Source of the DNA: Escherichia coli
Lineage (GTDB): Bacteria; Pseudomonadota; Gammaproteobacteria; Enterobacterales; Enterobacteriaceae
Direction: 5' to 3' (one strand)
Length of the DNA: 64,000 bases
NCBI RefSeq assembly: GCF_050320075.1
Contig: NZ_CP190018.1
Of the stretch, positions 3,416 to 20,245 are shown piece by piece (the stretch's first letter is position 1; the number at the start of each line of letters is the position of its first letter). Position numbers and translations under genes: made by a program. Under the pieces are notes generated by a model. That model worked only from the letters and a program-made list of their open reading frames with translations. It ran no database searches and had not been told where the DNA came from.

Positions 3416-4213
3416 TTAATAAAGTGAGTCGATATTGTCTTTGTTGACCAGTAATACCTTATGGAAACGGATAATTCGCTTATCCATATCTACGTCGGCC
3501 TTACCGAGATTCTCCATTTCTAATCCAGGTTTGATCTCTTCACCCTTCAGCAACGTGCTGGCGACGGCCGCGAGTGCGTAACCTGCAGAGGCCGGATCGT
3601 AAGTAATCCCTTCGGTGATATCACCACTTTTAATCAGTGATGCCGCCTGTGAAGGGATCATCATGCCATAGACTGCGACTTTATTTTTCGCCCGTTTCTC
3701 TTTCACTGCACGTCCCGCGCCAATCGGACCGTTTGAACCAAAGGAGACAACCGCTTTCAAGTCAGGATAGGTTTTCATCAGGTCCAGTGTGGTACGACGT
3801 GAGTCATCCACACTCTCGGCAACCGGCATGCGGCGGGTAACTTCATGCATATCCGGGTAATGCTCTTTCTGGTATTTCACCAGCAAGTCAGCCCATAAGT
3901 TATGCTGCGGCACGGTCAAACTACCCACGTAAATCACATAGCCGCCCTTGCCACCCATGCGTTTCGCCATATGCTCAACATATTCAGCGGCAAATTTTTC
4001 GTTATCAATGATTTCGATATCCCAGTTAGCACTTGGCTGACCGGGGGATTCGTTGGTCAGAACCACAATTCCGGCATCTCGCGCTTTTTTGAATACCGGT
4101 TCCAGCACGTTGGCATCGTTTGGCACAATTGTAATTGCATTAACCTTACGGGCGATTAAATCCTCAATGATTTTAACCTGTTGCGGAGCATCAGTACTTG
4201 AAGGCCCCACCTG
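3416..4213 (-). pseudogene. Periplasmic sugar-binding protein (LsrB/RbsB family), C-terminal fragment cut off by IS150
   Basis: The ORF runs right up to the IS150 left end. The translation continues the N-terminal fragment at 5657..5849 once IS150 and one copy of the CCTG duplication are removed (987 nt, 328 aa). The track start is a GTG created at the junction. Confidence 0.8.
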
Positions 4214-4260
4214 TGTACTGCACCCATTTTGTTGGACGATGAAATGGAATAGCCCCTAAT

Positions 4261-4782
4261 ATGTCAAAGCCAAAATACCCTTTTGAAAAGCGCCTTGAAG
4301 TCGTGAATCACTACTTCACAACTGATGATGGTTACAGGATCATCTCGGCACGTTTTGGTGTCCCCCGAACCCAGGTCAGGACATGGGTTGCCCTCTATGA
4401 AAAACATGGAGAAAAAGGTTTAATTCCCAAACCTAAAGGCGTTAGTGCTGATCCAGAGTTGCGTATTAAGGTCGTGAAAGCTGTGATCGAGCAGCACATG
4501 TCCCTTAATCAGGCTGCTGCTCACTTTATGCTTGCTGGTAGTGGTTCTGTAGCCAGGTGGCTGAAGGTCTATGAAGAGCGCGGAGAAGCTGGTTTACGCG
4601 CGCTCAAGATTGGCACCAAAAGAAACATTGCAATATCAGTTGATCCAGAAAAAGCGGCATCAGCATTGGAGCTGTCAAAAGACCGACGCATTGAGGATCT
4701 TGAAAGGCAAGTTCGATTTCTTGAAACGCGGCTTATGTATCTAAAAAAGCTGAAAGCCTTAGCTCATCCCACGAAAAAGTAA
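4261..4782 (+). CDS. insJ: IS150 OrfA (InsJ), HTH DNA-binding transposase subunit, 173 aa
   Basis: Protein MSKPKYPFEKRLEVVNHYFTTDDGYRIISARFGVPRTQVRTWV... is recognised as IS150 InsJ. The A AAA AAG frameshift heptamer lies at 4743-4749 near its 3' end. Confidence 0.9.
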   Translation: MSKPKYPFEKRLEVVNHYFTTDDGYRIISARFGVPRTQVRTWVALYEKHGEKGLIPKPKGVSADPELRIKVVKAVIEQHMSLNQAAAHFMLAGSGSVARWLKVYEERGEAGLRALKIGTKRNIAISVDPEKAASALELSKDRRIEDLERQVRFLETRLMYLKKLKALAHPTKK

Positions 4783-5630
4783 AAGTACTCAACGAGCTAA
4801 GGCAGTTTTATCCTCTTGATGAGCTTCTCAGGGCTGCGGAGATACCGCGCAGTACGTTTTATTACCATCTAAAGGCTCTCAGCAAGCCTGACAAGTATGC
4901 GGACGTTAAAAAGCGTATTGGTGAGATTTATCACGAGAATAGAGGCCGATACGGATACCGTAGGGTAACGCTGTCTCTTCATCGAGAAGGGAAACAGATT
5001 AACCATAAAGCTGTTCAGCGCCTGATGGGAACCCTCTCACTTAAAGCAGCGATTAAGGTCAAGCGATACCGCTCTTACAGAGGAGAGGTAGGGCAAACCG
5101 CCCCTAATGTTCTCCAAAGAGATTTCAAGGCTACGCGGCCAAACGAGAAGTGGGTTACCGATGTTACTGAATTTGTAGTCAATGGGCGCAAGCTGTATTT
5201 GTCTCCAGTAATAGATCTCTTCAACAACGAAGTTATTTCTTACAGCCTTTCGGAAAGACCAGTGATGAACATGGTTGAGAATATGCTCGATCAGGCATTC
5301 AAAAAGCTTAATCCTCACGAGCATCCTGTTCTGCACTCTGACCAGGGATGGCAGTATCGTATGAGAAGATATCAAAATATCCTTAAAGAACATGGTATTA
5401 AACAAAGCATGTCCAGAAAAGGCAATTGTCTGGATAATGCTGTGGTGGAGTGTTTCTTTGGAACCTTAAAGTCGGAGTGTTTTTATCTTGATGAGTTCAG
5501 TAATATAAGCGAACTGAAGGATGCTGTTACGGAATATATTGAATACTACAACAGCAGAAGAATTAGCCTGAAATTAAAAGGTCTGACTCCAATTGAATAT
5601 CGGAATCAGACCTATATGCCTCGTGTTTAA
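4743..5630 (+). CDS. insK: IS150 OrfB (InsK) integrase-core reading frame, made as an OrfAB fusion by -1 frameshift
   Basis: The -1 frame is open from the slippery site to 5630 and reads ...[32 protein letters not shown]...DVTEF...HSDQGWQY...LKSE (DDE motif). The track lists only the ATG-initiated part, 5025..5630. Confidence 0.85.
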
Positions 5631-5656
5631 CTGTCCAACTTTTTGGGGTCAGTACA

Positions 5657-5849
5657 CCTGTGAGGCATTAACACCAAAGGCTTTACCCGCCTCGACCACA
5701 CCTTCGCCCATGCGATTAAACCACGGCATACCATCGACTTTAGAGATATTCACCACGACTTTTTCCGCTGCCTGGAGCGGCGCAGAAATTAGCGCAGCGC
5801 CTAATAACAGCGAAGACACCATATTGATAACAAAACGTTTATTCATCAT
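5657..5849 (-). pseudogene. Periplasmic sugar-binding protein (LsrB/RbsB family), N-terminal fragment with signal peptide
   Basis: MMNKRFVINMVSSLLLGAALISAPLQAAEKVVVNISKVDGMPWFNRMGEGVVEAGKAFGVNASQVY: signal peptide followed by an LsrB-like N-terminal motif. It ends at the IS150 right end. Confidence 0.8.
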
Positions 5850-13103: not shown

Positions 13104-13709
13104 TTATGCACCTGCGGCCATCAGTAACTGCGCAATCTCTTCAAAGCCTCGTTCCCGCGCCAGTTCCAGCGGCGTTTTGCCATATTTATCCGTCATGTGC
13201 GGGCTGGCACCGTGTTCCAGCAATAACTGGACAATCGCCTGCTGTTTAATCCCGCCATCATTAAGCACAATTGCTTCCAGTAGCGGCGTCCAGCCAACAT
13301 GGTTGGTCTGGTTAACGTTAATCTCCGTATGCGCCAAAAGCTCTTTTACAATACTTAAATGGCCTTTTTCACAGGCAGGCGTCAGGCCGACACCGCCAAA
13401 ACGGGTGACGCAATTAAGATCGGGTTTAGCCGGTAAAATAATCCGTAACAGGGTTAAATCGCCGGTCAGGCAGCTAATTAAAAAAGGATTTGAACATATT
13501 TGATCTTGCTTATTAATATCTGCTCCGGCATCAATTAATGCCTGAACGCAAGCATATTGCTGATATAAACTTGCCAGCGTAATTGCCGTTTTCCCCTGAC
13601 GATCGCAGGTATTAATATCGACACCCAGCGCAAGGCAGGTTTTTACTTTATCGATATCACCCTGTTGCGCAGCCAATAAATAGTCGGCAGGTAGATTTTT
13701 TATAGTCAT
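13104..13709 (-). CDS. yahD: Ankyrin-repeat protein, 201 aa
   Basis: Repeated ankyrin-like units (G.TALH/LA...G....V..LL..GAD.N) are visible in the translation. Length matches YahD. Confidence 0.75.
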   Translation of the reverse strand: MTIKNLPADYLLAAQQGDIDKVKTCLALGVDINTCDRQGKTAITLASLYQQYACVQALIDAGADINKQDQICSNPFLISCLTGDLTLLRIILPAKPDLNCVTRFGGVGLTPACEKGHLSIVKELLAHTEINVNQTNHVGWTPLLEAIVLNDGGIKQQAIVQLLLEHGASPHMTDKYGKTPLELARERGFEEIAQLLMAAGA

Positions 13710-13966
13710 TCACATTCCCCTGGTTTTTGTGGCTGTTTTCGATGAATTGAGAATAGCAACGATAATCTGATAAAAGAACCCGCTTAAATTTAATTCGCCG
13801 TATTTCGCCTTTTTGTTGAATGATGTTCAACAATCTTTTCGCAGTGTGCGGTAGTGCAATATTTGTTTCTTTGACCCGATACCCTTTCACTCAATCAGGT
13901 TTTATTTCTCTATAGTCTGCACATGTAAGAGTAGCTTTCGTCCATGTCTAACCAGAGGGGAACAAG

Positions 13967-14464
13967 ATGAACGGACTCACGGCAACGGGTGTCACCGTCG
14001 GTATTTGTGCAGGGCTTTGGCAGTTAGTGTCTTCACATGTTGGGCTCTCTCAGGGATGGGAATTATTAGGAACCATTGGCTTCGTCGCCTTTTGCAGTTT
14101 TTATGCCGCAGGCGGCGGTAAAACGGGGTTTATCAGAAGCCTGGCGGTTAATTATTCCGGGATGGTGTGGGCGTTTTTCGCCGCGCTGGCTGCCGGTTGG
14201 CTGGCCTCGGTGAGTGGATTGTCCACGTTCTGGGCGAGCGTGATTATGACTGTACCCTTCTCGGCGGTAGTGGTCTGGCAAGGACGTTTCGGTTTATTGT
14301 CTTTTATTCCCGGAGGCTTTCTCGGCATGACGCTATTTTTTGCCAGCGGGATGAACTGGACGGTGACATTACTGGGTTTTCTGGCGGGTAACTGCGTGGG
14401 GATAATTTCAGAATATGGCGGACAAAAATTAAGCGAAGCGACGACTAAACGCGACGGGTATTAA
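13967..14464 (+). CDS. yahC: Inner-membrane protein, 165 aa
   Basis: Highly hydrophobic ORF with several predicted helices, transcribed divergently from yahD. Length matches YahC. Confidence 0.65.
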   Translation: MNGLTATGVTVGICAGLWQLVSSHVGLSQGWELLGTIGFVAFCSFYAAGGGKTGFIRSLAVNYSGMVWAFFAALAAGWLASVSGLSTFWASVIMTVPFSAVVVWQGRFGLLSFIPGGFLGMTLFFASGMNWTVTLLGFLAGNCVGIISEYGGQKLSEATTKRDGY

Positions 14465-14555
14465 AAGTTATTCAAAAATGATTATCTATCTTTAACCGAT
14501 ACCTCTACAGTCATGGCTGGAGAAATTCATAGTAGATAATGGCGGGAATGGTTTA

Positions 14556-15488
14556 ATGAACTCAATTTTTACCGAAGAGAATCTGTTGGCATTTACTACC
14601 GCTGCGCGTTTTGGCAGCTTCAGTAAAGCCGCAGAAGAGTTGGGTTTAACCACTTCCGCCATTAGCTACACCATCAAGCGAATGGAAACAGGGCTGGATG
14701 TGGTGCTGTTCACTCGCAGTACCCGAAGCATTGAGTTAACGGAGTCCGGGCGTTATTTTTTCCGCAAAGCTACCGACCTGCTGAATGATTTTCACGCCAT
14801 CAAACGCAGCATCGATACTATTTCGCAGGGTATAGAAGCACGGGTGCGCATTTGTATTAACCAACTGCTTTATACGCCCAAACACACCGCACGCTTATTA
14901 CAGGTACTGAAAAAGCAGTTTCCTACCTGCCAGATTACCGTCACCACCGAAGTGTATAACGGCGTCTGGGATGCGATTATTAATAATCAGGCGAATATCG
15001 CTATCGGCGCACCCGACACGCTGCTGGACGGTGGCGGCATTGATTACACGGAGATTGGCGCGATTCGCTGGGCTTTTGCCATCGCCCCGGATCACCCGTT
15101 AGCCTTTGTGCCGGAGCCGATCGCCGAAAGCCAACTGCGTCTCTACCCTAATATCATGGTGGAGGACACCGCACATACGATTAATAAAAAAGTGGGCTGG
15201 TTGCTGCATGGGCAGGAGTCAATTCTGGTGCCAGATTTCAACACCAAATGTCAGTGCCAGATTTTAGGTGAAGGAATTGGTTTTTTGCCGGATTACATGG
15301 TCCGTGAGGCGATGGCGCAATCCCTGCTGGTTACCCGACAAATCCATAATCCGCGCCAGGATTCGCGCATGTTACTGGCGACCCAGCACTCTGCCACCGG
15401 TCAGGTGACGCAGTGGATTAAAAAACAATTTTCGCCAAATGGCATATTAACGGGGATCTATCAGGATTTACTGCATCGGGAGAATTAA
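14556..15488 (+). CDS. yahB: LysR-family transcriptional regulator, 310 aa
   Basis: N-terminal LysR HTH (FTTAARFGSFSKAAEELGLTTSAISYTIKRME) plus a substrate-binding domain. Confidence 0.8.
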   Translation: MNSIFTEENLLAFTTAARFGSFSKAAEELGLTTSAISYTIKRMETGLDVVLFTRSTRSIELTESGRYFFRKATDLLNDFHAIKRSIDTISQGIEARVRICINQLLYTPKHTARLLQVLKKQFPTCQITVTTEVYNGVWDAIINNQANIAIGAPDTLLDGGGIDYTEIGAIRWAFAIAPDHPLAFVPEPIAESQLRLYPNIMVEDTAHTINKKVGWLLHGQESILVPDFNTKCQCQILGEGIGFLPDYMVREAMAQSLLVTRQIHNPRQDSRMLLATQHSATGQVTQWIKKQFSPNGILTGIYQDLLHREN

Positions 15489-19657: not shown

Positions 19658-20245
19658 ATGCCCAAATTGGGGATGCAGTCGATCCGGCGCAGACAACTGA
19701 TCGACGCCACGCTGGAAGCAATAAATGAAGTGGGCATGCACGATGCAACGATCGCGCAGATCGCCCGCCGTGCAGGCGTTTCTACGGGGATCATCAGCCA
19801 CTATTTCAGGGACAAAAATGGTCTGCTGGAAGCAACCATGCGCGATATCACCAGTCAGCTGCGTGACGCGGTTTTGAATCGATTACATGCACTTCCGCAG
19901 GGCAGTGCAGAGCAGCGATTATAGGCGATTGTTGACGGGAATTTCGATGAAACGCAGGTCAGTAATGCTGCGATGAAAGCCTGGTTGGCGTTTTGGGCCA
20001 GCAGTATGCATCAGCCAATGCTTTACCGTTTGCAGCAGGTGAGCAGCCGCCGCTTGTTGTCGAATCTGGTGAGCGAATTTCACCGCGAGTTACCGCGCCA
20101 ACAGGCACAGGAAGCGGGCTACGGCCTTGCCGCGCTGATTGACGGATTATGGCTGCGCGCGGCACTGAGCGGCAAACCGCTGGATAAACCTCTCGCACAC
20201 TCGCTGACCCGTCACTTTATTACTCAGCATTTACCCACCGATTAA
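19658..20245 (+). pseudogene. betI: betI (TetR-family choline-responsive repressor) interrupted by an in-frame TAG at 19922-19924
   Basis: Translation [50 protein letters not shown]...GSAEQRL stops at TAG, then continues in the same frame ([12 protein letters not shown]...[10 protein letters not shown]) to the expected end. The track splits it into 19640..19924 and 19973..20245. Confidence 0.8.

Follow-up and report, generated by a model that had tools for sequence, protein, structure and literature searches.

A complete insertion sequence at positions 4214-5656 interrupts a gene in the window, the 64,000-nucleotide stretch of Escherichia coli DNA analysed here. This locus raises the questions of whether its copy of IS150 is intact and mobile, by what kind of event it came to split the gene, how recent that event was, and why it took place at this particular site. 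A sequence-only reading had described an intact, probably transposition-competent element with a frameshift site and a 4-bp target duplication, and all of its coordinates proved correct. Comparison with reference copies, complete genomes and metagenome contigs makes it highly probable that a complete IS150 entered codon 63/64 of a substrate-binding gene next to yahJ in a single, evolutionarily recent transposition that duplicated CCTG. The copy itself is an ordinary, already-known element in a simple and recent insertion.

Anatomy and coding capacity of the element

The structure of the element is described with reference to the following features.

4214-5656, plus strand: complete IS150, variant allele (alignment with the K-12 and REL606 copies)
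4214-4244, plus strand: left inverted repeat (IRL), TGTACTGCACCC..., identical to K-12
5626-5656, plus strand: right inverted repeat (IRR), ...GGGGTCAGTACA, from the IRL/IRR alignment and identical to K-12
4261-4782, plus strand: orfA (InsA/InsJ), 173 aa with two HTH domains (ORF listing; Pfam HTH_28)
4743-4749, plus strand: slippery heptamer A AAA AAG for programmed -1 frameshifting, in the cuA-AAA-AAG phase of orfA
4756-4803, plus strand: predicted frameshift-stimulating hairpin (inverted repeat and RNA fold)
4749-5630, plus strand: orfB part of the OrfAB transposase (translation; Pfam, NCBIfam)

Positions 4214-5656 hold a full-length IS150 of 1,443 bp that opens with TGTACTGCACCC and closes with GGGGTCAGTACA. 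Alignment to the IS150 reference, which the sequence-only reading had suggested as a check, was gapless and revealed neither truncation nor indels: 1439 of 1443 nucleotides (99.72%) are shared with the annotated K-12 copy (NC_000913 3720633-3722075), and the termini are the same. The REL606 copy beside rbsD (the kup/rbsD copy) is identical in sequence to that of K-12. For the source genome, the RefSeq annotation of the element reads 'IS3-like element IS150 family transposase, programmed frameshift' (WP_085948682.1). On these grounds the element is classified as an isoform of IS150 in the IS150 group of the IS3 family. IS150 occurs in 2,864 of 5,426 complete E. coli genomes, at a median of 2 and a maximum of 14 places per genome, and many copies in this collection are 100% identical to the one in the window. 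Both terminal inverted repeats are present, as had been claimed. They are imperfect, with a perfect match over the terminal 7 bp (TGTACTG...CAGTACA) and 18/24 and 22/31 matches over longer stretches. A scan of the entire element with sigma-70 promoter and terminator consensus sequences found sites no commoner than in shuffled sequence.

The 173-aa OrfA reported earlier was recovered at 4261-4782 and matches Pfam HTH_28 in two stretches (1.6e-23). Its protein is identical to K-12 InsJ, as none of the four nucleotide differences falls within the coding positions of orfA; the stop codon is TAA in the window copy and TGA in K-12. The heptamer A AAA AAG likewise lies where it had been placed, in phase with orfA, and RefSeq joins the coding sequence of the source genome at this heptamer as a programmed frameshift. 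Six nucleotides past it begins the predicted hairpin, whose stem is a perfect 10 bp (4756-4765 paired with 4794-4803) enclosing a loop of 28 nt and is unaltered relative to K-12. The computed fold has an energy of -18.3 kcal/mol (z = -3.6), which was equalled by 0 of 200 shuffles.

The -1 frame is open from a point 5' of the heptamer through to the stop codon at 5628-5630, and joining the frames at the heptamer gives an OrfAB of 456 aa. This transframe protein carries the Pfam domains rve (2.7e-28), rve_2 (8.8e-22) and HTH_21 (1.7e-15) as well as HTH_28, and it matches the NCBIfam model NF033516 (IS3-family transposase) end to end at 413 bits, the cutoff of the model being 160 bits. The full length of the element, its near identity to the reference and this end-to-end match bear out the earlier description of the copy as intact. 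The open OrfB frame with a DDE motif was confirmed as well, and the triad can be assigned in OrfAB numbering to D301 (5160-5162), D361 (5340-5342) and E397 (5448-5450), that is, D-59-D-35-E, with K404 seven residues past E397. The IS150 group is characterized by an N-terminal HTH, a C-terminal DDE domain, a D(57-60)D(35)E spacing and a K or R about seven residues after the E (PMC5771124); the spacing and the K at +7 of the predicted protein match this signature. The two reading frames overlap in phases 0 and -1 and, together with an AnG slippery motif that is followed by a structured region, correspond to the OrfAB layout of the IS3 family, with predicted frameshifting.

The insertion event and its age

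Four further features define the junctions and the interrupted gene.

4210-4213, unstranded: left target-site duplication CCTG (read directly; single CCTG in strain 746)
5657-5660, unstranded: right target-site duplication CCTG (read directly; single CCTG in strain 746)
3416-4213, minus strand: 3' fragment of an ABC-transporter substrate-binding gene (pseudogene fragment in the source-genome annotation)
5657-5849, minus strand: 5' fragment of the substrate-binding gene, with the signal peptide and the first ~63 codons (annotation, sequence)

When 4214-5660 is deleted, what remains of the window matches the empty site of strain 746 exactly across the junction. The uninterrupted region of that strain comprises 1,996 bp, compared with 2,000 bp of window flanks, and differs at one position in 1,996 bp. 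At the junctions the repeat in fact reads ACCTGTG, since the IS termini (TG... and ...A) chance to match the target. Duplications of 3 or 5 bp were ruled out: IS150 copies elsewhere define where the IS ends, the empty site contains one CCTG, and the duplication is therefore 4 bp long. Because the empty site is reproduced exactly, the duplication is real and no rearrangement is associated with it. Among 54 simple IS150 insertions from an evolution experiment, duplications measured 3 bp in 44 cases, 4 bp in six, 5 bp in two and 1 bp in two (PMC11708052, Table S1). A 4-bp duplication is thus a normal but minority outcome of IS150 transposition, 3 bp being usual.

The intact target gene, present in strain 746, is 987 bp long and encodes a periplasmic protein of 327 aa, annotated 'autoinducer 2 ABC transporter substrate-binding protein' (WP_001042105.1). 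The duplication spans codon Q63 and the first base of V64, and the gene is consequently split at codon 63/64. It leads a minus-strand operon for an accessory (sugar-type) ABC transporter; the operon adjoins an ASCH-domain gene and yahJ and is ordered as substrate-binding protein, ATPase and two permeases. The transposase is oriented opposite to the operon. An outward promoter has been documented at the 3' end of IS150 (PMC11101190). In the present orientation such a promoter would read antisense into the 5' fragment and the ASCH-domain gene, and not into the downstream transporter genes; we therefore infer that the insertion is a knockout of the operon in its first gene, with probable polarity on the downstream ATPase and permease genes. 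Two other lesions are annotated in the source genome YZLc1-3 and are unrelated to IS150: betI (19658-20245 of the window) is a pseudogene with an internal stop codon, and ykgL is frameshifted.

When the IS together with 1 kb of sequence from either side was used as a query, an occupied site was recovered from only two of 5,426 complete genomes, namely YZLc1-3 (chicken, China) and Ec-U3 (human), both at 100% identity; the first 50 kb of the window match YZLc1-3 without a difference. The uninterrupted site, with contiguous flanks, occurs in thousands of genomes. The restriction of the insertion to two genomes points to a recent and simple event.

The earlier reading had taken the flanking CCTG repeat to mean a simple insertion and not a rearrangement, an interpretation that the comparison with strain 746 upholds. 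The contrary view, that the repeat is coincidental and the element marks the junction of a rearrangement or deletion, could appeal to the 1/256 chance of a 4-bp match, to IS150 copies that have no duplication, the K-12 reference copy among them, and to documented IS150-adjacent deletions without duplications (PMC11708052). However, the two flanks adjoin each other in thousands of genomes, the gene halves rejoin in frame to encode the 327-aa protein, and the window without the IS and one CCTG is the empty site exactly. The last of these observations refutes a rearrangement junction, and we consider the probability of this alternative negligible. A different objection concerns not the nature of the event but where it happened. 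Two genomes from different hosts, a chicken in China and a human, share this exact insertion together with flanks that are 100% identical, as would be expected if the IS had not transposed in this strain and the interrupted locus had instead been inherited, or acquired by homologous recombination, from another strain. Such a history is compatible with a simple IS150 transposition as the origin of the locus, and close relatives have an empty site with one mismatch in ~2 kb of flank, which makes the event recent on the scale of the species. We judge transfer or inheritance of the locus to be unlikely, at a level that still deserves consideration, and the insertion event common to the two genomes may predate this strain. 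A single recent transposition remains our preferred account of how the gene was split.

A minority allele and its mobility

The window copy differs from the K-12 and REL606 sequence by four substitutions (G568A, T652C, A707G and C963T in IS positions).

4781, plus strand: IS568 G>A, GTG to GTA in the orfB frame and TGA to TAA at the orfA stop
4865, plus strand: IS652 T>C, synonymous (K-12 alignment)
4920, plus strand: IS707 A>G, OrfAB S221G in the HTH_21 region (K-12 alignment)
5176, plus strand: IS963 C>T, OrfAB A306V, five residues past the catalytic D301 (K-12 alignment)

The exact 61-mer around base 4781, with A at this base, was the best match in 152 of 3,394 IS150-bearing records (~4.5%), and the window copy therefore represents a minority allele. 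Nearly all remaining records have one mismatch to the 61-mer and presumably carry the GTG allele, as do K-12 and REL606. G568A removes the GTG that is annotated in K-12 as the start of InsB (insK) and is silent in both OrfA and OrfAB (Val). Upstream of 5025, the orfB frame of the window copy has no ATG, GTG or TTG left. The substitution lies in the loop of the predicted hairpin and leaves the stem untouched; the computed energy changes from -20.4 to -18.3 kcal/mol with the loss of a sub-helix within the loop.

What the loss of this GTG means depends on how InsB is made. Vogele et al. reportedly found in 1991 that the expression of ins150B also involves frameshifting. If InsB synthesis requires frameshifting, InsB would naturally start elsewhere than at the lost GTG, whose removal may then be inconsequential. 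An in-frame AUG is present within orfA at 4735-4737, two codons 5' of the slippery heptamer. It is tempting to speculate that initiation at this AUG followed by a -1 shift could yield an InsB-like protein of ~298 aa, which would make the lost GTG irrelevant. A weaker possibility is that the allele represents a de-repressed lineage, should free InsB restrain transposition as OrfB of related elements does; free OrfB has been reported to inhibit transposition in several IS3-family relatives (PMC5771124).

The identical 1,443-bp allele is found at no fewer than four distinct loci, each with a duplication of its own.

glyS-hokA intergenic region: identical allele, duplication AAG
ybdK-hokE intergenic region: identical allele, duplication CCC
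trg-hokB intergenic region: identical allele, duplication AAC
window site: identical allele, duplication CCTG

An IS150 count for the whole genome, proposed in the sequence-only reading, gives four places in YZLc1-3, three of which were located: the copies at hokA, at hokB and in the window all carry the exact allele and lie on the same strand. The hokE site is empty in YZLc1-3 according to a synteny search. Because identical sequence occurs at several loci with different duplications and the insertion in the window is private to two of 5,426 genomes, we infer that the allele is mobile and transposition-competent; this is good indirect evidence and lends support to the earlier designation of the element as probably transposition-competent. 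The donor of the window copy was likely the identical hokA or hokB copy of the same genome.

The REL606 copy, which has the K-12 sequence, is experimentally very active (PMC11708052, PMC5289635, PMC7881107), and the window copy departs from that active sequence at four positions, with A306V close to D301. One could argue on this basis that S221G, A306V and the lost InsB GTG have impaired or altered the copy and that it arrived through a canonical IS150 transposase acting in trans; with three of the four IS150 places of the source genome located, a canonical helper at the fourth is possible. The distribution of the allele speaks against such dependence, as it is present at the four or more loci listed above across different genomes, all three located copies of the source genome match it, and some genomes in which it is the only IS150 match still have it at the usual hotspot. 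G568A, moreover, is silent in OrfA and OrfAB, and IS3-family transposases act preferentially in cis. We thus regard an impaired, trans-mobilized copy as very improbable and retain the interpretation of a mobile allele.

Target-site preference, genome instability and related systems

The sequence at the right junction offers a possible answer to the question of why IS150 inserted at this site.

5661-5666, plus strand: hexamer TGAGGC directly after the duplication, on the IRR side, fitting YGRGGC

In the window the duplicated CCTG is followed immediately by TGAGGC, which is the sole TGAGGC on either strand of the 987-bp target gene. At the other sites of the allele the IRR-side hexamer is TGAGGC (hokA), CGAGGC (hokB) and TGGGGC (hokE). 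The motif was tested on ten held-out REL606 sites, comprising the native rbs copy and nine positions hit in the evolution experiment; with whichever strand fits, strict YGRGGC was present at 4/10 and the relaxed form YGRGRY at 7/10, at a strict expectation of ~0.001 per site. The pflB gene is intact in REL606 itself, and the IS150 insertion in pflB belongs to a derived clone.

Metagenome contigs were scanned for the exact IRR end, which yielded 111 junctions with 60 distinct IRR-side flanks. Strict YGRGGC was found in 39 of these 60 flanks, many of whose targets are related hok-family sequences, and at a local background frequency of 0.0019 per position. The motif starts at +4 in 30 flanks, at +5 in eight and at +6 in one, proportions that mirror the 3-, 4- and 5-bp duplication lengths. 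After clustering of the targets it was retained in 16 of 28 clusters and in 13 of 22 unrelated singletons. In the IRL-side control it was present at none of 11 junctions. The idea that the hotspots reflect mere shared ancestry of the targets was rejected, given the unrelated singletons that keep the motif and the IRL-side result.

These patterns amount to a strong, asymmetric target motif and lead us to propose, tentatively and with somewhat less than even confidence, that IS150 integration is guided by a YGRGGC hexamer (TGAGGC, CGAGGC, TGGGGC or CGGGGC) that comes immediately after a duplication of 3-5 bp and always lies on the IRR side. One example of such guidance would be the insertion in the window, where the motif would have contributed to the choice of landing site, and the hok hotspots would follow from it. 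Chromosomal and plasmid hok-family loci, among them hokA, hokE, hokB, REL606 mokC/hokC and many metagenome loci, are recurrent targets of IS150. Insertions at these loci occupy homologous positions ~70-100 bp upstream of hok, with YGRGGC at each. The trg-mokB region is a reported IS150 hotspot (PMC5289635), and an unexplained IS150 hotspot has been reported elsewhere (PMC11101190). No description of the YGRGGC motif was found in the open literature searched; the motif may already be known, for example from ISfinder/TnPedia or from older IS150 papers. If undocumented, it would account for the repeated hits on hok toxin loci and would help to predict IS150 hotspots, with relevance for the stability of production hosts of the E. 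coli B/BL21 type and for parallel insertions in evolution experiments.

From its anatomy and from what is established for IS150 and the IS3 family, the window copy is expected to be expressed and to transpose as follows. A single transcript from the left end would be translated into OrfA, the 173-aa HTH DNA-binding protein, and ribosomes that slip by -1 on A AAA AAG, aided by the hairpin 6 nt downstream, would produce the 456-aa OrfAB with both HTH and DDE regions. OrfAB would then link the two ends of the IS, giving first a figure-of-eight and subsequently a circle, and it would integrate this circle through cuts staggered by 3-4 bp. A preference of the transposase for YGRGGC abutting the duplication on the IRR side, here TGAGGC, would probably determine the landing site. 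OrfAB-catalysed figure-of-eight and circular intermediates of IS150 are attributed to Haas and Rak 2002, as cited in PMC3299598.

The statement that an active IS in this region is a source of further instability was generic but reasonable. Deletions adjacent to IS150 are well documented (PMC11708052), and three metagenome contigs (L081, L067 and L052) hold full-length IS150 copies with hybrid, non-matching flanks. On L081 the left flank derives from the hokB site and the right flank from the hokA site. Such hybrids indicate that IS150 copies located at different hok loci recombine with one another in natural populations. In the source genome, at least three identical copies in the same orientation can seed further insertions and adjacent deletions.

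Signs of rearrangement or of other insertion sequences were also observed away from the window copy. The K-12 reference IS150 has no duplication and is flanked by GTA and AAC (L001, positions 620-633 and 2077-2100), and its IRR abuts the reverse complement of the IRL-side flank seen at the hokA site in other strains, which suggests that the hokA locus of K-12 has undergone an inversion or an adjacent rearrangement. In YZLc1-3, two IS1 copies flank a truncated gene of the yiaA/yiaB family near xylB/wecH (L012, positions 13271-14950), and a fimbrial usher gene is disrupted by additional copies of IS1 (L015). Several active-looking IS families are present in the source genome.

Among known systems, the window copy is closest to insJ/insK of K-12 and the IS150 of REL606, with which it shares the length of 1,443 bp, the same OrfA, the heptamer, the hairpin stem and the DDE triad. 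These copies differ from it in that they are without the four substitutions of the window allele and have a duplication of 3 bp (REL606 rbs) or none (K-12), compared with 4 bp here. IS911, IS3, IS2 and ISSau2 resemble it in the arrangement of orfA and orfB, an A6G-type slippery site with a downstream structure and an OrfAB transposase, as well as in TG...CA ends, 3-4 bp duplications and the circle-intermediate pathway (PMC3299598, PMC5771124), yet they belong to other subgroups and are only distantly related in sequence. With regard to target choice, a parallel is provided by IS1397 and ISKpn1, which insert into REP/BIME and likewise have a short, sequence-defined target by the duplication that leads to recurrent hotspots (PMC1525189). 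The targets of IS1397 and ISKpn1, however, are palindromic repeat elements, whereas the motif proposed for IS150 is the 6-mer YGRGGC on the IRR side.
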